Part shown: positions 5,180 to 57,042 of the stretch, one piece after another
How positions within the stretch are numbered: position 1 is the first letter of the stretch
Layout of the letters: each line of letters starts with the position of its first letter
Virus record (IMG/VR): IMGVR_UViG_3300025093_000018
Location: 16,991-80,990 of that record
DNA length: 64,000 nt
DNA from: a virus
Reading direction: 5' to 3' (one strand)
Position numbers and translations under genes: made by a program
Notes under the pieces: model-generated
What the model was told of the DNA's origin: nothing
Databases searched by the model: none
What the model saw: the letters and a program-made list of their open reading frames with translations, nothing else

Positions 5180-5868
5180 TAAAAGATAAATTTATAATAG
5201 TAAGTAGCTGGTGCTATTGTATTTATACTGCAATATATTTTTCTATTGTTACCAGCATCTACAATAACATTAAATTGACTAGTAATATCTAGACCTGCTC
5301 CATCCTCAATAGCCGTAACAGTACCATAAGAATCCGGTACAACAAACACTACCCTAGCTGTTACTGCAGCAACTAAACTAAATATATTAATAATAGTCGC
5401 TTTATCTGTCACAGTTAAAGCAGCTTCTAAAGGCGCTGTTAAATCTCCAGGAACAGTAATATTATCTCCAGGACCTGATAATTGGCCGTACTTAAACGCA
5501 GCAGTAACCACAACAGTTATAGACTCAATAAAACTTTGTGGATCTCCATTTGAATCTGTATAATATACAGTTAAATAGTAATTATATGTACCAGGTGAAG
5601 ATGGTATACTACCTCCGGTTAATGTTGTAGATGGTGTTAAATTAGTTCCTGTAGCTATAGGAGTTGGTGTTACACCTTCATTAATTGCCCAACTATCTAC
5701 AGTACCATCATTTTGTGTAATAGTTCCGGATAAAACGATACTACCAGGTAATGAAGTATCTACGTATGTATCTGGTGTAGCTGTAAATGTTGAGGTAGGC
5801 GGAGTGTACCCAGGTATTCCTGAGAACATATAATCTGCCATATTTTTAAATTGTTTTCCGCTTATCAT
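5179..5868 (-). CDS. Ig-like virion structural protein
   Basis: T/S/G-rich beta protein; similar layout to 7357-8061 (KYG/YYG...VFVVP/LYVAIP). Confidence 0.5.
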   Translation of the reverse strand: MISGKQFKNMADYMFSGIPGYTPPTSTFTATPDTYVDTSLPGSIVLSGTITQNDGTVDSWAINEGVTPTPIATGTNLTPSTTLTGGSIPSSPGTYNYYLTVYYTDSNGDPQSFIESITVVVTAAFKYGQLSGPGDNITVPGDLTAPLEAALTVTDKATIINIFSLVAAVTARVVFVVPDSYGTVTAIEDGAGLDITSQFNVIVDAGNNRKIYCSINTIAPATYYYKFIF

Positions 5869-5869
5869 G

Positions 5870-7351
5870 TTATTTCAATTTAGTTATTTCTAAATAACCA
5901 GCTAATGTAGTATTTAAAGAACTGGCAGCCCAAGAACTAGTAGTTGTTAATCCAAGGATAACGCCGTCACCAACCCCAGCTGTAGATCCAATAATTAGTA
6001 AAGCCTCTACTTCATAAGAAGCTTGGTCAGAATCAGTCCACGCTGTTGTAGGACTAGCTACTGTTGCAATATCTTTTAAAACAGTAGTACCTGGAACACC
6101 TGCAGCTGCAGTAGTTAATCCATTTATACTGTAAAAATTAAATGTAAAATCATTATGTTTATCAGATACAACATTTATCTTTACCTTTACTTTATATGTA
6201 CCTTCAGGTAATGTGAACGATACTTTTTCCGTGGCTGGTCCGTCTGCATTCCACGCGGATACCAAAGCGTCCCCATTTGCAGTAGTTGTGTCAACTCTAG
6301 GGTTATAATTAGAACCTACAGCAGTTAAAGATGCATCTGCTGCAATATCGTATCTAACTATCTTAGAGTTATTTAACGGTTGATCTATTTGAATCCAGTT
6401 ATTAAATACCGTAGGGTCTTTTTGGGGCGGTAATAGATAAGCACCTTGGTCAGTAGACCTTAAATCTACCCAATAATAATTATCGGCCGGTGTAGAGTAA
6501 AGACCTGGTATCCATGTTGTAGGATCTATAGATTTAGGTCTAGTACCAGACCAAATTTCCCATGCCCATGGTAAAGCATATAATACATTTGGATCAGTTC
6601 CAGTCCACGCTAAATGTGTACCAAGATTAAAATTATCTACCTTTCCTTGTATAGCTTGGTTAAGTAAATTTCCTTGGTAAGCAGATAGTGGAGATGTTGT
6701 ACTTGTAGATGTAAGATTATTAATAACTCCTATAGCATCTAAGAAGTTAGTGATTAAATCCCCTTTCTTTATATACTGAACAGCATCCCACTGACACATT
6801 GCTGTACCATGATTCTTAAATGTAACAGATTCATTACCGGTTACACGACCATTAATAGTCATATCAAACCCGTCTTCCATTACAATATCGTTTGACCCAG
6901 CAACATCATAATCTTTATGTACAAAAGTTAATTGTTGTGCATCTGCTATATAAAATGTAACTTGCTCACCTGCAACTGCATTTGTAATGCTAGCAATAGT
7001 AGCGGATCCACCACCAACTACAGTAACTACTACACTATGACATGTAGCAATAGCTGGAGACACTAATGATAAATCTAATACAGTAGTAGTAGGTGTTATA
7101 TTAAGAGCTCCAGTCGTTTTAGATGTAGTTGTAGCTCCACCAATATTAACCCATGCTAGCACGCTAGGAGCTGATTCTTGGGCTTGGTAATTTAATTGTA
7201 CATCCTGTACATAAATAATAGCCCCTTCTGGGATAAAATTAGCAGCGGCATTAGGATCTGGTAAACTAGCAACATTAGCCACAGGAGCTAACCTTGCATC
7301 TAAAGATTCTTTTATCTTAGGATTTAGATTATTATTAATTTCTGTTGCCAT
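5870..7351 (-). CDS. Tail fibre-associated protein
   Basis: SLDARL...EGAIIYV N-terminus and NNLTSTSTTSPLSAYQG fibre repeat motif. Confidence 0.55.
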   Translation of the reverse strand: MATEINNNLNPKIKESLDARLAPVANVASLPDPNAAANFIPEGAIIYVQDVQLNYQAQESAPSVLAWVNIGGATTTSKTTGALNITPTTTVLDLSLVSPAIATCHSVVVTVVGGGSATIASITNAVAGEQVTFYIADAQQLTFVHKDYDVAGSNDIVMEDGFDMTINGRVTGNESVTFKNHGTAMCQWDAVQYIKKGDLITNFLDAIGVINNLTSTSTTSPLSAYQGNLLNQAIQGKVDNFNLGTHLAWTGTDPNVLYALPWAWEIWSGTRPKSIDPTTWIPGLYSTPADNYYWVDLRSTDQGAYLLPPQKDPTVFNNWIQIDQPLNNSKIVRYDIAADASLTAVGSNYNPRVDTTTANGDALVSAWNADGPATEKVSFTLPEGTYKVKVKINVVSDKHNDFTFNFYSINGLTTAAAGVPGTTVLKDIATVASPTTAWTDSDQASYEVEALLIIGSTAGVGDGVILGLTTTSSWAASSLNTTLAGYLEITKLK

Positions 7352-28551: not shown

Positions 28552-30876
28552 TTAATACATTGGCTTTGGGTCATCAGGATCGGTCATATCTATCCATCTT
28601 ACCCCACCATGTTTTTTAAATTTTTCAGCTTCTAAGAATTGCTCCATCTCATTTCCTCCTTGACCTTTTTTCTCGGGAATTACTCCGTACCTTTTAATTC
28701 TACGACCGTCTGGTAACTTTTCTGTCCAATAACCAAAAGATTGTAATTGTTGAGTTTCTCTTACTGGTGGTTTAGCTACCTTACCCATTAAATCTTCATC
28801 TGATAATTCACATAACCCCATAGCTATTACCATATCATACTTAGTACGATTATCTCTATCATAATCTTGTAGTTGAGCTAGTAAATCCGGAAACCATATT
28901 TTATCATAACTATCATCAATATATGATTTAATTTTACCGTCCATATGATCAATAAGATAAGAACTTACCTGAGTACCTATTAAATTAGAGCTCTTCTTAG
29001 GGTCTCCCCCTTGTAAAGCAATAGATGGTCTCTTCTTTAGTAAGTGATAAAACCCCATATCTCTAAAATAACCAACAATACCAATTTTAGTATACTCTAT
29101 ATTTACTTGAGAGTTATAGTATATGGCCAGCTTAAGTGCATTACCCCAATCATCCCTAACATCGTCAGAACGTTTATTATATTTAGCAACATAAATATTT
29201 GATGTGTATTTAAAGTACCCTTTATCCACAACACGTTTTTTAACCATCATACAAAGTTCAGAACCTTTTTTATTATCTGTTGCGTAAGATGAATCAATAT
29301 TACCTTGATCAATACTATCACAACCGGATACATATAAATCTTTCATTGGTTGTTTCTCGTCGTCAGGTAAATCTGTTATATCCTGCAACCAGTGTGGATG
29401 CTCTAGTATTTCTATATCACCAGTAGTTGGTGCTGGATCCCATTCTACCCCAATAATTTTACCATTCTCAGCTTGTTTCCATTTAAGGAAACCTCTACCA
29501 GGTTTTGGTATATTATCTTTACCAAAGTCAATTGTGGTCCTTTGTGTGGCTATCTTATCCTGATCAAAGATATTTACTCCTGTACGTAAGAATACCTCTT
29601 TAATAGTCATAGGGAATTCTTGTAGAAGCCCCATGTATGCAATTGGGTCTGATTTCTTCTTGGCTCTCTCTTCTTCCGTTTCCATTCTACCTAAAGCTAC
29701 ATCTGGGCATCCACTATCTTCCCAAGTACCAGAACGTTTTATATGTGTTGGGATAAATATTCCACAACCTTTATCGCCAGCTTCTTCCCAATCCCATGTT
29801 GGTATACATTCACTAGCAATAGGATCCATAAATATCCCTTCTGCTTGATCATTTTCTACAGTACCTCCAGTCCCAGAATATAAAACTGTACATTTCTTCA
29901 TACCACCCATTACATACCAAGATCCTCTAGATTCTCTCATGCATGATTTAAGATCTCCTTTTTGTCCTGTAGGTGGGAACGCAGCAAACTCCTCTATTAA
30001 CTGTATAGTAGGACGCTTACCCCTTGTCTTACCGGCGTTTTTACCATAAGTAATTTTTTCCATTTTAGCTAGATACCCTCTATCTTCTGTTGTACCATCT
30101 GGTAATTCTACCACCTCTCCAGAATATTTCATTGTTAGCGAGTCGGTAATACGTTTATGTTTAAGAGCTCTATGTAACTTTTCAATAGCTGTTAAACATT
30201 CCTCAACCTTATTCCAAGCCTCGGAAGTTGTTTCATCATTTGTAGAAGATACTACAGTCCAAGAGTTAGGGAATAATCTATATTCTCTATCCATAATCGA
30301 GCCCCATAGGTATGATTTACCTATACCACGACCTCCCATTAAAGATACATCTTGTTTTGTAAGTCTTGCCTTCCAAGCTATATCAAGTATATATCTATCG
30401 ATATTACAATAAAAAGGATGACCTGGGTCAAAATCAGGAACTAAGTTTCCGTCTTCATCATATTTTGGGACTGGGAATACAAAAACATTTAACCAGTAAA
30501 CCATATAAGGATTCCAATACTCACCATCAACCCAAACACCATGTTTACAATATTCTATAAGATCTCGATACCAATTCTCCATATCTAAAGAATCCGGATG
30601 ATAAGCTGGTAAGTCTCTCCATTGTATTAGTTCTTTAGGTACAGGTCTATATACTAAGTAATCTTTTAAATTAATTTCTTCATTACCTGTTGGACAACCA
30701 TATAATTTATCTGGTACATCAGTAACATCAAACTCACCATTCATGATTTTTCCATCTTTCTTAACTAAGAAATCTAAATCAAACTTATCATAGTCATTTT
30801 CAAACGCAGCTCTTGGAAGTTTATTAATATCAATAAACTTTACCGGTTTTGGTTTATGTAATTCTCTAGTTGTCAT
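28552..30876 (-). CDS. terL: Terminase large subunit
   Basis: Walker A GGRGIGKS, Walker B IQLIEE, YSGTGG coupling motif, nuclease GCDSID and YDMVIAMG. Confidence 0.92.
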   Translation of the reverse strand: MTTRELHKPKPVKFIDINKLPRAAFENDYDKFDLDFLVKKDGKIMNGEFDVTDVPDKLYGCPTGNEEINLKDYLVYRPVPKELIQWRDLPAYHPDSLDMENWYRDLIEYCKHGVWVDGEYWNPYMVYWLNVFVFPVPKYDEDGNLVPDFDPGHPFYCNIDRYILDIAWKARLTKQDVSLMGGRGIGKSYLWGSIMDREYRLFPNSWTVVSSTNDETTSEAWNKVEECLTAIEKLHRALKHKRITDSLTMKYSGEVVELPDGTTEDRGYLAKMEKITYGKNAGKTRGKRPTIQLIEEFAAFPPTGQKGDLKSCMRESRGSWYVMGGMKKCTVLYSGTGGTVENDQAEGIFMDPIASECIPTWDWEEAGDKGCGIFIPTHIKRSGTWEDSGCPDVALGRMETEEERAKKKSDPIAYMGLLQEFPMTIKEVFLRTGVNIFDQDKIATQRTTIDFGKDNIPKPGRGFLKWKQAENGKIIGVEWDPAPTTGDIEILEHPHWLQDITDLPDDEKQPMKDLYVSGCDSIDQGNIDSSYATDNKKGSELCMMVKKRVVDKGYFKYTSNIYVAKYNKRSDDVRDDWGNALKLAIYYNSQVNIEYTKIGIVGYFRDMGFYHLLKKRPSIALQGGDPKKSSNLIGTQVSSYLIDHMDGKIKSYIDDSYDKIWFPDLLAQLQDYDRDNRTKYDMVIAMGLCELSDEDLMGKVAKPPVRETQQLQSFGYWTEKLPDGRRIKRYGVIPEKKGQGGNEMEQFLEAEKFKKHGGVRWIDMTDPDDPKPMY

Positions 30877-31501: not shown

Positions 31502-31720
31502 TTATTTCGAATGTACTAAATCTTTAGTATTAAAGATCTGTTCTTGATATTCTCCTTTATTTGTAAACCAAAAACATAAAACACCCATTAGCTGAGGTTT
31601 ATTAGTCTTCTCATCTTTCATTCGACTTTTCTTGATCTCTTTAACGATCATTTGAGGTCTAAACATAATTTCCTGTTTCAACTCTACAACTTCTCCAGGA
31701 ACAAAATATACCATACTCAT
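31502..31720 (-). CDS. YodC/DUF2158-like small protein
   Basis: PGEVVELK...PQMIV...VLCFWF..G.YQEQIF pattern. Confidence 0.6.
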   Translation of the reverse strand: MSMVYFVPGEVVELKQEIMFRPQMIVKEIKKSRMKDEKTNKPQLMGVLCFWFTNKGEYQEQIFNTKDLVHSK

Positions 31721-31824
31721 AACTTATTAACATTAAAATTTATATTACTTTAATATAAGAAAGTTTTTAATAAGGTCAATGGGATTCGCGATTCGCGTAT
31801 TGCATATCGTGATATGGAATATTG

Positions 31825-31897
31825 TTACCCCGCTAGGACTCGAACCCAGATCTGCGGGGCCGTAACCCACTGTTTTATCCAATTAAACTACAAGGCA
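31825..31897 (-). tRNA. tRNA-Arg(ACG)
   Basis: Cloverleaf; anticodon arm GTGGG-TTACGGC-CCCGC; T-loop TTCGAGT. Confidence 0.85.
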
Positions 31898-31903
31898 ATA
31901 TAG

Positions 31904-31974
31904 AGCACCTGGTAGGATTCGAACCTACGTCTGAGGTTTTGCAGACCCCTGCCTAGCCACTCGGCCACAGGTGC
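31904..31974 (-). tRNA. tRNA-Cys(GCA)
   Basis: Acceptor GCACCTG/CAGGTGC; anticodon loop CTGCAAA; U73. Confidence 0.92.
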
Positions 31975-31978
31975 GTAG

Positions 31979-32049
31979 CACGACAGGAAGGATTCGAACC
32001 TTCATGATACGGTTTTGGAGACCGATCAGCACAACCTACGCTCTGAAGT
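31979..32049 (-). tRNA. tRNA-Trp(CCA), two acceptor-stem mismatches
   Basis: Anticodon loop CTCCAAA; T-arm GAAGG/CCTTC; acceptor ACTTCAG/CTGTCGT. Confidence 0.7.
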
Positions 32050-32054
32050 AAATA

Positions 32055-32111
32055 TTGTTATTTATATCCGATTAGTAAGGTTATAAGTGACTAACCAGAT
32101 ATAAATAACAA
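32055..32111. repeat. About 22-bp inverted repeat spacer between tRNA-Leu and tRNA-Trp
   Basis: TTGTTATTTATATCCGATTAGT ... ACTAACCAGATATAAATAACAA; pairs fully with G-U on the minus-strand RNA. Confidence 0.8.
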
Positions 32112-32117
32112 GTTTTG

Positions 32118-32200
32118 TAGCCGGGGCGGGAATCGAACCCGCACGTCCTAGGGACAACGGATTTTAAGTCCGTCGCGTCTACCTGTTCCGCCACCCGGCC
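32118..32200 (-). tRNA. tRNA-Leu(TAA)
   Basis: Anticodon arm ACGGA-CTTAAAA-TCCGT; long variable arm. Confidence 0.92.
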
Positions 32201-32262
32201 ATAGATTATATTTGTTTCATTACCATTCACGTACAGTGAACAGGGACTTTTATTGAACATTG

Positions 32263-32343
32263 TAGCTTCGGTGGGATTCGAACCCACAAACCTCTTGCTT
32301 CTAAGGCAAGGTACTCTTCCATTCGTCTTTACGGCACGAAGCT
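32263..32343 (-). tRNA. tRNA-Leu(TAG), atypical
   Basis: Acceptor AGCTTCG/CGAAGCT; CTTGC-CTTAGAA-GCAAG; short variable loop and enlarged D region. Confidence 0.8.
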
Positions 32344-32348
32344 ATTTG

Positions 32349-32424
32349 TAGCCCTAGAGAGGATCGAACTCTCTTTTCCGCAGTGAAAACGCGACGTCCT
32401 AACCAACAATTAGACGATAGGGCC
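32349..32424 (-). tRNA. tRNA-Glu(TTC)
   Basis: Acceptor GGCCCTA/TAGGGCT; anticodon loop TTTTCAC. Confidence 0.88.
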
Positions 32425-32431
32425 ATAAAAC

Positions 32432-32460
32432 AAAAAACCCCGGTGGTTACCGAGGTTCTT
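32432..32460 (-). terminator. Attenuator terminator of tRNA array 1
   Basis: AAGAACCTCGGT-AACC-ACCGGGGTTTTTT ending about 7 nt before tRNA-Glu. Confidence 0.85.
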
Positions 32461-32500
32461 TAGTGTTTAACTTTAAAACTTTAAATTATGTCAATCAAAT

Positions 32501-32587
32501 TCAAATATCTTTAGCGCATACACCAGAACCTCCGTTGGATTCTTCCAACAGCCATAAACAAAGTTCTAATGTGCGTAATGTTTTCAT
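32501..32587 (-). CDS. Attenuator leader peptide 1, MKTLRTLELCLWLLEESNGGSGVCAKDI
   Basis: Codons 4-16 are L/R/E/C/W in 12 of 13 positions, matching the downstream tRNAs; contains antiterminator ACGGAGGTTCT. Confidence 0.8.
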   Translation of the reverse strand: MKTLRTLELCLWLLEESNGGSGVCAKDI

Positions 32588-32591
32588 ATTG

Positions 32592-32599
32592 CAAATTTA
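32592..32599 (-). promoter_or_regulatory. Bacteroidota -7 promoter TAAATTTG (array 1)
   Basis: TAnnTTTG 4 nt before the leader ATG, implying a near-leaderless transcript. Confidence 0.7.
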
Positions 32600-32626
32600 A
32601 TAATAAAATTTAAAAGTAAAATGGGG

Positions 32627-33073
32627 TTAATCGTAAACTCGAACTTCTATAGTGTGATTTTTATAAAACTCGTTATTTACATAAGTTCCAGCAGAGTTAA
32701 CCATTTCATAATAAATAGTATTTACATCTTCCCAATACGCTAATACGTGACTATTACCATTTTGTGCTGTATTATTATGAAAAACTGCAGTTTTACCTTC
32801 TGTAAATACTCCAGCTAAGGTCATATAATAACCACCTGGGTACCCAGCATAACTCCAAACAGGTGTTCCTCCTAAAGTATTTTCTAATACAGTAGCATCA
32901 GGAGCACTAGTACCTGATTGTGTTAATGTTGCTGTATATACTCTATAGGGTCTTACAGTCTTATTGGCTAAAGCTATAAGTTCCTCTCTAAGTCTATTAA
33001 TATCTTTTACATCTTTACCAGTATGTTGTATATTGGCTTTGATAGAATCTGTAGTATCAGATACTTGTCCCAT
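32627..33073 (-). CDS. Virion-associated protein with VYTATLTQSGTSAP domain
   Basis: YRVYTATLTQSGTSAP..VLENTLG...IEVRVY module recalled from Bacteroidota phage fibre C-termini. Confidence 0.55.
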   Translation of the reverse strand: MGQVSDTTDSIKANIQHTGKDVKDINRLREELIALANKTVRPYRVYTATLTQSGTSAPDATVLENTLGGTPVWSYAGYPGGYYMTLAGVFTEGKTAVFHNNTAQNGNSHVLAYWEDVNTIYYEMVNSAGTYVNNEFYKNHTIEVRVYD

Positions 33074-33099
33074 AATTGATTATTTTTAATTAAATTTTA

Positions 33100-33534
33100 T
33101 TAACTCTTAACTGACCAATCAATTACCATTGCAGCGTCTAATGCGTTAGAAGCGTGAGCATTAAAGATCTTAATAGTAAGGGTATCATCTGTAGGCTCTA
33201 CTTTAGAGATTACAGGCATTCCAGCTCCTGTATAACTAGAGATTACAGCTGTAACAATTGAACCTGTAGTTAGTAAAGTATTAGAAATAGTTAATACAGT
33301 TGCTTCTGTAAGAGCAGCAGTTGATAACGCAGCAGTAGTAGATTTACCAACTGAGTTATTTAATGTAGGTGTTGCACCTGTTGTTGTGTTGTCTGAAGCT
33401 TCACCTGTTAAGTAGTTAGCTACATCAGTCATGAAGTTTCTAAGGGTCGTAGTAAAATCTTTTCTATCTGAATTGTATTGTAAGTCAGCTAAGATTCTAG
33501 TTTTAAGACCCGCGGATCCTGTAATAGTTGCCAT
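33100..33534 (-). CDS. Putative head decoration/fibre protein
   Basis: Ala/Thr-rich beta protein. Confidence 0.45.
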   Translation of the reverse strand: MATITGSAGLKTRILADLQYNSDRKDFTTTLRNFMTDVANYLTGEASDNTTTGATPTLNNSVGKSTTAALSTAALTEATVLTISNTLLTTGSIVTAVISSYTGAGMPVISKVEPTDDTLTIKIFNAHASNALDAAMVIDWSVKS

Positions 33535-35900: not shown

Positions 35901-35938
35901 ATCTAGGTAATGTACAAAAAATTATTAAAAATATAAAG

Positions 35939-36012
35939 TACTCCCGGTAGGATTCGAACCTGGAACCGTCCCCTTAGAAGGGGGATGCTCTATCCAGTTG
36001 AGCTACGGGGCC
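35939..36012 (-). tRNA. tRNA-Arg(TCT), apparently chimeric 3' end
   Basis: Canonical D and anticodon arms (TCCCC-CTTCTAA-GGGGA); T-stem CCAGG/CCTAC and acceptor GGCCCCG/CGGGAGT each carry two mismatches. Confidence 0.7.
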
Positions 36013-36016
36013 AAAT

Positions 36017-36049
36017 AAAAAAGCCCCGGAACTTTGTAGTCCGAGGCTT
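36017..36049 (-). terminator. Attenuator terminator of tRNA locus 2
   Basis: AAGCCTCGGA-loop-TCCGGGGCTTTTTT just before tRNA-Arg. Confidence 0.85.
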
Positions 36050-36074
36050 CCTGTTATATATGAATTATTCTTAC

Positions 36075-36167
36075 TTACATATTTACAAATACAGATAGCC
36101 GCGGACTCCGTCTCGAATCGACAGTTCCGTTACTCTTAATGCCTGTATTTATAATTATTGCTTGCAT
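36075..36167 (-). CDS. Attenuator leader peptide 2, MQAIIINTGIKSNGTVDSRRSPRLSVFVNM
   Basis: Preceded by promoter-like TATATTG; contains AGTCCGCGGCT complementary (10/11) to terminator 5' arm AGCCTCGGACT. Confidence 0.75.
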   Translation of the reverse strand: MQAIIINTGIKSNGTVDSRRSPRLSVFVNM

Positions 36168-36199: not shown

Positions 36200-36799
36200 C
36201 TAAAAGGTCTTAGAATAATTTTTTAGCTTTTCTTTATCAGAACTTGAAAATTTAGATGAGTAGGTTAGGTTACCTTCTTCGCTCATTATATAATCCTCTG
36301 TACCACTATGGTATAAACCAAATAGATGTCCAAACTCATGTATAATAACCCTTGAACAATCCTTATTCGAATCCTGAAGACTGAGATCTACAAGGGCTAC
36401 AGCCTTTAAAGTACCTATACAGTTAGTATGAGCTGCTCCTATAACATCTTCGTCACTTCTACCTGTAATATACAAACTTATATCGGCCCAATTATTAGTT
36501 AACCTTTTAATAGAGGCTATTACAGAAAGATACGGGTTATAATCACTACCTCCATATGTAAAGGTAGAAATTTTAAAGTGGATGCCTACTTGAGCATATA
36601 CATTATTAACGTGGATCATAATCTCTTTAAGATCACTATAAGTTTTACTGGATGTGGTATCTACAAAGATATTTACGTTATAATGTTGGGTAGCTACTAA
36701 CTCCTGCGCATTAGATTTCAACACAGGATCAATTTTATATTGCCCTAGTAATGTAAAGCTGCAAACAAATAAGGCTAAAAATAATAAAAGTTTTTTCAT
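36200..36799 (-). CDS. Secreted metzincin (M12/reprolysin-like) zinc metalloprotease
   Basis: Signal peptide; HEFGHLFGLYH; Met-turn YIMS. Confidence 0.85.
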   Translation of the reverse strand: MKKLLLFLALFVCSFTLLGQYKIDPVLKSNAQELVATQHYNVNIFVDTTSSKTYSDLKEIMIHVNNVYAQVGIHFKISTFTYGGSDYNPYLSVIASIKRLTNNWADISLYITGRSDEDVIGAAHTNCIGTLKAVALVDLSLQDSNKDCSRVIIHEFGHLFGLYHSGTEDYIMSEEGNLTYSSKFSSSDKEKLKNYSKTF

Positions 36800-37556: not shown

Positions 37557-37587
37557 AAAAAGCCCGAACTCTTTAAGAATCCGGGCT
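37557..37587 (-). terminator. Attenuator terminator of tRNA array 3
   Basis: AGCCCGGATTCT-TAA-AGAGTTCGGGCTTTTT ending about 10 nt before tRNA-Pro. Confidence 0.85.
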
Positions 37588-37614
37588 AATCAGCTTAGTA
37601 TATGTATGATCACA

Positions 37615-37692
37615 TTATAACACACTAATATCACCCAGAGAGCTAAAGGCCATCGGCTGAAAATAAAATGCGTTATGTTGTGTTTTTCTCAT
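37615..37692 (-). CDS. Attenuator leader peptide 3, MRKTQHNAFYFQPMAFSSLGDISVL
   Basis: Codons 5-16 are Q/H/A/F/Y/P/M in 11 of 12 positions, exactly the seven downstream tRNA specificities. Confidence 0.82.
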   Translation of the reverse strand: MRKTQHNAFYFQPMAFSSLGDISVL

Positions 37693-56106: not shown

Positions 56107-56283
56107 AGATAAACGTTTCGGTAGATTTAGCCGCTTAACGTGGGTGTTGTAGTTTATACCTGTGAAGAGAACCCAAAAACTACAGTCGTCATATACTAAA
56201 ATATGTCCGATAATAAATCAAAGAGAGGGGATTGGCCTTATATTCCCCTCTTTCTTTAAAAAACATTTATTATATTAAAAACT

Positions 56284-56600
56284 TAATTACTGTTAGGCTT
56301 TTATACTTAACTGTTTGGACGAGGGTTCGAATCCCTCCGACTCCACAACGCATCAGTTAGCGAAGGTAGAAAACGCTTGCGTAAACCTACCTAAAAAATT
56401 GGCAGAGTACCCGGAGATACTTGTACACTAAATGGTTGAAATAACCACTGCCAACAATATGGGGTCGTTTTTGGTTTTGACAGCAGAAGACGAGGTATTA
56501 GATAGGTAATTATAATCTCTTAAACGGAGAATTTGATATGGAGCACAATCCATTTATTGTGCAAGAAGAAGCAGTTGCTGAGAAATTGGCAGCCTAATCT
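56284..56600 (+). ncRNA. ssrA: Circularly permuted (two-piece) tmRNA
   Basis: 3' piece first (GAC-GAGGG-TTCGAAT-CCCTC-CGACTCC-A, ending 56345). 5' piece GGGGTCG...TTTTGAC starts at 56461. Acceptor stem has G3-U70. Tag frame 56526-56597 reads GEFDMEHNPFIVQEEAVAEKLAA*. Confidence 0.85.
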
Positions 56601-56604
56601 CATT

Positions 56605-56640
56605 AGTCCCGGTGAAGTATAGTACCCGGGACTTCTTATT
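56605..56640 (+). terminator. Hairpin/terminator closing the tmRNA coding piece
   Basis: AGTCCCGG...CCGGGACT followed by TCTTATT. Confidence 0.55.
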
Positions 56641-56655
56641 GAACTAAAATGAAAT

Positions 56656-57042
56656 ATGGAAAGAGATATTCTAATCAAAAAAATTACAGAAGGTAACCCA
56701 GATAAAACTACAATACTTACTTGGATAAGATCTTTACCTAATTACAATAAATTAAAACCATCTACTTATAAAAAAGGAGATATATTGATGCATCCAATAT
56801 TTGCGCATCCTTATATACTTATTGAATATCATGAAGATAGAGGTTGGATTTGTTGTATGTTAACAAGTAAAGAAGAATGCGATGAAGTATTAGTTAAATG
56901 TAATTCAAGGTTTTTACCTGATTCTTATGTAACTAAAATGTTATTTACAATTAATGAGCCTGTTGGATCTTATATGGGGCCTTATGAAAATAATACTCAA
57001 TTAAATTCTATTATTAGAAAATTAAAGAAAATATTTAAATAA
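56656..57042 (+). CDS. Hypothetical protein (possible SH3/PemK-like fold)
   Basis: KKGDIL...HPYILI...CCMLTS. Confidence 0.45.
   Translation: MERDILIKKITEGNPDKTTILTWIRSLPNYNKLKPSTYKKGDILMHPIFAHPYILIEYHEDRGWICCMLTSKEECDEVLVKCNSRFLPDSYVTKMLFTINEPVGSYMGPYENNTQLNSIIRKLKKIFK

Follow-up and report, generated by a model that had tools for sequence, protein, structure and literature searches.

The multivalent leader-peptide attenuators of enterobacteria include trpL, hisL, leuL, thrL (Thr plus Ile) and the ilvGMEDA leader (Ile, Leu, Val). The pheST attenuator of Escherichia coli, with its pheM leader, and the T-boxes of Firmicutes tie the expression of translation components to the state of transfer RNA (tRNA), and the Bacteroid-trp motif of Rfam is a leader-peptide attenuation element of Bacteroidota. 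The tRNA genes of phages are usually viewed as constitutive help with codon usage, or as spares against host defences that cut tRNA. We analyzed a stretch of 64,000 nucleotides (nt) of DNA from a marine phage, called the window here, which spans bases 16991-80990 of an 80,990-base IMG/VR virus contig (IMGVR_UViG_3300025093_000018). In this window, six tRNA genes on the minus strand are preceded by a 28-codon open reading frame (ORF) and a terminator, and this unit is likely to be a functional ribosome-mediated (leader-peptide) transcription attenuator that gates the phage tRNA operon. As far as sequence can test them, the features of a leader-peptide attenuator are all present and conserved.

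Like attenuators of the trpL/hisL type, the unit has a promoter-proximal short ORF with control codons in or near segment 1, mutually exclusive 1:2, 2:3 and 3:4 helices, a terminator before the first regulated gene, and several amino acids per leader. Unlike them, it is phage-borne, probably leaderless, and directed at tRNAs rather than biosynthetic enzymes; about 50 nt lie between segments 2 and 3, and the roster covers up to six isoacceptors for five amino acids, mostly one to four times each, in place of a run of a single codon. It also has no sequence relation to the leader families of Rfam. With the pheST attenuator and the T-boxes, it shares feedback by charged tRNA on translation genes through a choice between terminator and antiterminator. 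However, pheM controls a synthetase and reads one amino acid, and T-boxes bind uncharged tRNA directly, with no ribosome involved.

Scans with 4227 Rfam models gave no match to a leader family at gathering score on the window and none at E up to 1 on 31700-32700, and the T-box models likewise matched neither the window at gathering score nor 31700-32700 at E up to 1. These scans ruled out a T-box or other known riboswitch. Two sub-threshold matches over the leader, PsrR1 (27.5 bits vs 42) and rimP (25.1 vs 47), were due to chance. The unit works like the multivalent leader-peptide attenuators, belongs to no curated family, and has phage tRNA genes as its targets.

The nearest printed case is the trn array of Anabaena sp. 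PCC 7120. According to two reports, this array is silent until translation is impaired, and it is controlled at the promoter, where direct repeats are bound by the repressor TrcR (PMC8421152; PMC10272220). The shared feature would be a supernumerary tRNA array that is off and comes on when translation falters, whereas the Anabaena array is cellular and not viral, is controlled at its promoter, and has no codon roster. The terms 'attenuat-', 'leader' and 'terminator' have 0 occurrences in PMC8421152, and terminator-based anatomy is absent from its text. The likely host clade, promoter type and principle of the unit are those of the Bacteroidota attenuators, although these control amino-acid biosynthesis. 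In Flavobacterium psychrophilum, one report describes clues of leader-peptide attenuation upstream of amino-acid operons, and its Supplementary Table S7, with 64 structured 5' regions, may bear on tRNA genes (PMC9723704). Full-text searches, whose coverage leaves out most subscription journals and supplements, turned up no description of tRNA genes under leader-peptide attenuation.

All parts of the unit lie on the minus strand and are listed below.

32592-32599, minus strand: Bacteroidota-type sigma-A -7 box TAAATTTG (direct reading)
32501-32587, minus strand: leader ORF of 28 codons, MKTLRTLELCLWLLEESNGGSGVCAKDI, plus the TGA at 32503-32501; last sense base 32504 (direct reading)
32540-32578, minus strand: control-codon block, codons 4-16, in which 12 of 13 codons are for Leu, Arg, Glu, Cys or Trp
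32561-32575, minus strand: segment 1 CGCACAUUAGAACUU, the 5' strand of the 1:2 helix, codons 5-9 (minimum-energy folds)
32532-32551, minus strand: inner hairpin CUGUUGGA-AGAA-UCCAACGG between segments 1 and 2 (folds)
32515-32535, minus strand: segment 2, the 3' strand of 1:2 (ORF nt 57-73) and the 5' strand of the 2:3 antiterminator (ORF nt 53-68)
32449-32466, minus strand: segment 3 ACACUAAAGAACCUCGGU, pairing with segment 2 or, as the 5' arm of the terminator, with segment 4 (duplex and truncated-transcript folds)
32425-32462, minus strand: intrinsic terminator (3:4) with a 14-base-pair (bp) stem, AACC loop and U run; hairpin 32462-32431, -16.8 kcal/mol
31824-32424, minus strand: regulated tRNA array of six genes (ARAGORN, Rfam and by hand)

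Codons 4-16 of the leader read TTA CGC ACA TTA GAA CTT TGT TTA TGG CTG TTG GAA GAA. The residues E, L, W, C and R make up 18.6% of the residues in 74 long ORFs of the contig, and at this frequency 12 of 13 codons in the set has P = 1.9e-8. Among the 463 ATG ORFs of 15-60 codons in the six frames of the 81-kb contig, the leader ORF was the sole top (score 12), with a runner-up at 9. A chance origin of the codon roster is excluded. All six downstream tRNAs are represented in the leader codons, and the control codons cluster in or next to segment 1.

Relatives were gathered with terminase alignment scans, which yielded 52 loci, eight of them with tRNA genes (ARAGORN default). A homologue of this unit, in which tRNA-Glu comes first, was found in five relatives, L004, L007, L021, L023 and L043, whose large terminases are 62-69% identical to that of the window; their leaders are MKNLVTLLECRLWLEESSGGSSNAKTFL, MKTLHTLLERLLWLERFSGGSNCAYM, MKKLYTLECLWLEENFKGNLMDNF, MKVLHTLLERCLWLESISGGSIGVVTAQIMR and MNKLRTLLERCLWLEKTPGVLIMR. 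We refer to the window and these five as the six homologues, and to all units of three leader families across the window and its relatives as the 14 units. The leader ORF was open in all six homologues, at lengths of 24-31 codons. In the five relatives, a terminator of -12.6 to -20.5 kcal/mol followed 23-30 nt past the leader, and tRNA-Glu 11-15 nt further on.

The array behind the leader in the window consists of the following genes.

32424-32349, minus strand: tRNA-Glu-UUC, Rfam 49 bits, missed by ARAGORN default
about 32343-32262, minus strand: Leu-UAG-like, non-canonical, called by neither ARAGORN nor Rfam and seen by hand
32200-32117, minus strand: tRNA-Leu-UAA, canonical (ARAGORN)
32049-31978, minus strand: Trp-CCA-like, 25.0 bits vs a cut-off of 29, called only under relaxed settings
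31974-31903, minus strand: tRNA-Cys-GCA, canonical (ARAGORN)
31897-31824, minus strand: tRNA-Arg-ACG, canonical (ARAGORN)

Read by hand, the Leu-UAG-like gene shows a perfect 7-bp acceptor stem and a CUUAGAA loop; its variable arm is short and its D region enlarged. L004 has canonical forms of all six tRNAs, in the same gene order as the window. The Leu tRNAs of this phage group (window 32262-32343, minus strand; L043 5433-5686; L004 2102-2175) are without the long variable arm of the bacterial type, several of them share a TAAAGNCGAAT..GG.AGAG motif in the enlarged D region, and standard finders pick them up neither in the window nor in L043. The 70-nt spacer between the Leu-UAA and Trp-like genes is filled by a perfect 14-bp inverted repeat (32098-32111 / 32055-32068, minus strand), which has a loop of 29 nt and no clear U run after it.

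A preliminary description of this DNA had quoted the control codons exactly as we read them and had proposed that they fit the isoacceptors of the array, with CGC rather than AGA for Arg. This fit holds. In this phage, CGC makes up 1% of Arg codons vs 68% for AGA, and CTG and TTG make up 1% and 6% of Leu codons; these rare CGC, CTG and TTG are the codons for the array anticodons ACG, UAG and UAA. Ahead of segment 2 in the six leaders, 6 of 7 Arg codons were CGY, which fits an ACG or GCG anticodon, while the unit with tRNA-Arg-UCU had AGA in 4/4 leaders. The same description had placed a -7 box only 4 nt from the ATG, and direct reading confirmed it: the box is followed by CAAT and then by the ATG at 32587-32585. 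The short ORF is thus situated between the promoter and the regulated genes; the upstream neighbour, a gene for a 148-amino-acid protein, ends at 32627. In F. psychrophilum, the report gives a sigma-A motif TAnnTTTG occupying -12 to -5 and counts 5.5% of messenger RNAs (mRNAs) as leaderless (PMC9723704). The predicted +1 in the window would therefore be the A of the leader ATG. The idea of a leaderless mRNA agrees with this published rule and with the 4-nt spacing, but the distance from box to ATG varies among the homologues: 4 nt in the window, L004 and L043, 6 nt in L021, 72 nt in L007 and 82 nt in L023. The box abuts the ATG in four of the six, and the distances in L007 and L023 indicate that a leaderless start is no conserved requirement; here, the leader mRNA is probably leaderless. 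In L023 (2260-2342) and L007 (410-487), an insertion of about 70-80 nt separates the -7 box from the leader ATG, and the L023 insert carries an extra 20-codon ORF, MERIAPFVGYNMPITCRTCC, which starts about 7 nt past the -7 box.

Two parallel units were identified elsewhere in the window.

37561-37692, minus strand: parallel unit 2, leader MRKTQHNAFYFQPMAFSSLGDISVL at 37692-37615 and terminator at 37587-37561 (read, with folds)
36021-36167, minus strand: parallel unit 3, leader MQAIIINTGIKSNGTVDSRRSPRLSVFVNM at 36167-36075 and terminator at 36049-36021 (read, with folds)

Unit 2 precedes Pro, Met, Ala, Tyr, His, Phe and Gln tRNAs at 37547-36869. In its leader, 11 of 12 codons match this array (P = 2.8e-6), and it ranks top of the 463 ORFs for that residue set. 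Unit 3 precedes a lone tRNA-Arg-UCU (35938-36012, minus strand). When codons 2-17 were compared with the arrays, leader 1 matched its own array at 12/16 vs 0/16 and 1/16 for the other two, and leader 2 matched its own at 11/16 vs 1/16 for each of the others. The three window leaders match their own arrays, two of them their own array only. General phage codon bias was ruled out as the source of the roster, since leaders match their own arrays and not the others. In the L004 homologue of the unit 3 leader (L004 407-1790), 18 of 18 codons match eleven tRNAs: Arg, Lys, CAU, Gly, Asp, Asn, Ser, Ser, Thr, Ile and Val. Unit 3 of the window looks like the remnant of a lost array.

In some relatives, a missing tRNA gene goes with a difference in the roster. 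L021 is without an Arg tRNA and its leader is without Arg; L007 is without a Cys tRNA, and Leu takes the place of the core Cys in its leader; and the second-type unit of L040 is without a Pro tRNA and reads QQM vs QPM in the others. This L040 unit (5796-6152) guards only an Ala-UGC-like tRNA, seen by hand and with a CCA end, and a tRNA-Gln.

The agreement between roster and array bears on what the unit senses. A real attenuator could respond to general translation stress or to host amino-acid starvation and not to tRNA supply, with a roster that reflects charged tRNA as the sensed quantity; the array would then open whenever a ribosome slowed on the leader for any reason. Stalling reports charged tRNA, so that a lack of amino acid and a lack of tRNA are indistinguishable to such a device, as in the trp and his attenuators. 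However, a general stress sensor needs no array-specific roster, and the window leaders list their own arrays down to the choice of CGY or AGA; moreover, a lack of amino acid is not cured by more tRNA. Although induction of the Anabaena array by translation inhibitors (PMC8421152; PMC10272220) would suit a stress sensor, we consider this explanation unlikely.

We then come to the RNA of the unit itself. For the complete 176-nt leader, the folding energy was -46.5 kcal/mol (z score -3.96), a value that 0 of 200 shuffles matched. In the minimum-energy fold, CGCACAUUAGAACUU pairs with AGGUUCUGGUGU..GCG, which is the segment 1 pairing that the preliminary description had put forward. Its complementarity between segment 2 and the terminator arm was reproduced by direct reading, with ACGGAGGTTCT the reverse complement of AGAACCTCGGT at 10/11 positions, and RNAduplex extended it to GAGGUUCUGGUGU with ACACU-AA-AGAACCUC at -19.7 kcal/mol (z score -5.3; 0 of 300 dinucleotide shuffles as good). 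The 1:2, 2:3 and 3:4 helices that it had named are present and mutually exclusive. The intrinsic terminator is located between the ORF and the first regulated gene: 38 nt separate the ORF stop from the hairpin, 6 nt separate the hairpin end from tRNA-Glu, and the last base of the U run adjoins tRNA-Glu. The inner hairpin may be a pause or nucleation hairpin, and four relatives have CUGGAG(A)...(U)CUCCGG at its position.

We compared these structures across the homologues. In the 5' block of the leader, the amino acids are kept via synonymous changes (TTA/TTG, TGT/TGC, CGC/CGT, GAA/GAG, TTA/CTT), and in the 3' part the amino acids vary while the pairing is kept. The 1:2 helix, from codons ~5-10 to ~19-24 around the inner hairpin, was present in all six homologues. 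The best leader partner of the terminator 5' arm was at codons 15-23, just past the control block, in 6/6 homologues (-11.0 to -19.7 kcal/mol); out of 300 dinucleotide shuffles each, 0, 4, 0, 11, 0 and 9 did as well. A terminator was found in all 14 units, at -11.4 to -20.5 kcal/mol.

To count pairs of the 2:3 and 3:4 helices, we aligned the five relatives with MAFFT. This alignment leaves out the window, whose terminator MAFFT could not align and whose helices were tested on its own sequence. The 2:3 antiterminator (5 sequences, 9 pairs) had 97.7% of 44 cells paired, with slid controls at 35-67.5%, and 3 of its 9 pairs changed on both sides, e.g. from C-G to U-A and from A-U to G-C. Among 500 shuffles, one reached the paired fraction or the covariation score and 28 reached the number of compensatory pairs. 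These results point to conservation of the 2:3 helix. Helix 3:4 had 89.8% of 49 cells paired, and 41 of 500 shuffles were as high; most of its unpaired cells trace to L004, whose 3' arm is shifted by two columns in the alignment.

The pairing between terminator and ORF also bears on whether codon sensing is needed at all. The ORF could be a conserved micropeptide gene or a chance ORF, and the hairpin a plain terminator of upstream late genes, with the tRNAs made by readthrough or from promoters of their own. No terminator stands between the end of the upstream gene (32627) and the leader, so that transcription of this gene could also stop at the hairpin; terminator-like sites are not unusual (7 found vs 3.7 expected), and the stretch LELCLWLL could be a short hydrophobic helix. 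The statistics given above nevertheless exclude chance for the ORF (P = 1.9e-8; top of 463). A micropeptide, for its part, leaves unexplained why three unrelated leaders each spell their own array, why pairing is kept in the 3' half of the ORF while its amino acids vary, why the terminator arm covaries with the ORF, and why the -7 box abuts the ATG in 4/6 homologues. We regard this explanation as improbable. An RNA-only element with an incidental frame, acting on the pre-tRNA transcript as a signal for processing, stability or protein binding, or as a T-box-like tRNA-binding riboswitch, would suit the strong conserved structure and the adjoining tRNA that RNase P must cut out, but it is improbable as well, given that no T-box or other Rfam match reaches gathering score over the leader, that the frame is open in 6/6 homologues despite indels, that synonymous changes keep the amino acids, and that the roster match is a property of codons and not of structure.

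Under the attenuator reading, host sigma-A RNA polymerase would initiate at or beside the leader ATG, and a ribosome would load immediately. We infer that the leader ORF is translated, that transcription and translation are coupled, and that switching runs in the direction given here. With charged tRNAs for UUA/UUG, CUN, CGC, GAA, UGU and UGG plentiful, the ribosome would pass codons 4-16, after which segment 1 would re-pair with segment 2, or the ribosome would cover segment 2. Segment 3 would then be free to pair with segment 4, and transcription would end 6 nt ahead of tRNA-Glu. If any listed tRNA were scarce, the ribosome would stall on or near segment 1, and segment 2 would be free to capture the emerging segment 3. 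The terminator would be blocked, and polymerase would continue into the Glu, Leu, Leu, Trp, Cys and Arg tRNA genes. The added tRNA would relieve the stall, a negative feedback on the supply of exactly the tRNAs encoded in the array. The six tRNAs are probably made only when ribosomes run short of them, and the natural trigger might be, for example, loss of tRNA after host shut-off or through an anticodon-nuclease defence.

We modelled this process by masking 28 nt around each A-site codon and folding the transcript through segment 3. The 5' arm of the window terminator was held by the ORF (0.6-0.7) with the A site at codons 1-15 and was free (0-0.1) at codons 16-26. The release step fell just past the last roster codon in 14/14 units of the three families. 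The control codons are positioned where a stalled ribosome would free segment 2.

Several observations weigh against a functional attenuator of this kind. The translation, transcript ends and regulation proposed for the unit are predictions from sequence and folding. When the full-length RNA was folded at equilibrium, the terminator was likely wherever the ribosome stood; its lowest probability was 0.38, at UGU. A transcript cut after segment 3 favoured the antiterminator even with no ribosome (0.71), so the off state would rest on folding order, and with a ribosome at the stop codon, segment 2 was free and the terminator arm was recaptured in several homologues. Equilibrium folding cannot give the direction of switching. 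Attenuation of the trp operon is a kinetic decision, and by analogy the decision here would have to be kinetic as well. The shuffle tests lack independence, since only six related sequences stand behind them. Covariation in the 1:2 helix is thin: RNAalifold on the MAFFT alignment, in which indels are misplaced, gave 1 compensatory pair out of 17 and a covariation term of +1.68.

The match between roster and array is likewise imperfect. The leader has ACA (twice) and AAA, for which the array has no tRNA, and two of the six tRNAs are uncalled at standard thresholds and may thus be defective. The unit 3 leader lists Ile, Asn, Thr, Gly, Lys, Ser, Val, Asp and Arg and guards one tRNA only. L021 has two UUA codons but no Leu-UAA gene, Arg is still listed in L023 when its Arg tRNA is a hand-seen ACG stem-loop only, and in L040 codons for His, Phe, Tyr and Met persist although the corresponding genes are lost. 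Across these loci, the roster is seen to follow the array only in part, and such retained rosters suggest that leaders outlive their arrays.

If the attenuator reading is true, a textbook mechanism would extend to a new class of targets, with a direct feedback loop on tRNA supply, and regulated tRNA arrays would have a simple sequence signature in metagenomes. A broader proposal, which we offer tentatively and hold to be possible rather than likely, is that these units form a codon-addressed system of tRNA supply, in which the leader of each block lists isoacceptors and the phage tops up exactly the tRNAs lost by the infected cell, at no cost otherwise. In that case one could read from the leaders which host tRNAs the phage expects to lose, and orphan leaders would mark lost tRNA blocks.

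The window has a G+C content of about 34%, and the contig a completeness of 42% by CheckV. Three DNA sequencing runs, one of them possibly the source, are listed as containing this stretch, and no RNA run is. Its terminase gene was annotated as follows.

28552-30876, minus strand: large terminase (TerL), phrog_6681

The encoded protein is 21-27% identical to TerL of crAss-like phages of Bacteroidota. A blastn search of 31700-33100 against 50,697 phage records matched 177 records, all of them only by a tRNA or a DUF285 gene and none by the leader, and a search for related loci with the 148-amino-acid protein upstream of the leader returned no relatives. When viral contigs were scanned with DNA patterns of the three leader types, the only contig outside the terminase set was L055, which was rejected as a leader homologue when direct reading identified a chance match within coding DNA. 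Profiles of the three leaders run with nhmmer over all gathered loci found 0 further copies.

Between two of the tRNA units, at 36200-36799 (minus strand), lies a gene for a 199-amino-acid protein with an N-terminal hydrophobic, signal-like segment and a HEFGHLFGLYH zinc-protease motif. A related gene in L040 and L041 ends just ahead of tRNA-Arg-UCU. The window also carries a permuted transfer-messenger RNA (tmRNA) at 56253-56688 (plus strand), for which ARAGORN gave the tag GEFDMEHNPFIVQEEAVAEKLAA and the Rfam model tmRNA_permuted scored 51.1 bits vs a cut-off of 47. This tmRNA is a second investment in the rescue of stalled ribosomes on the contig.

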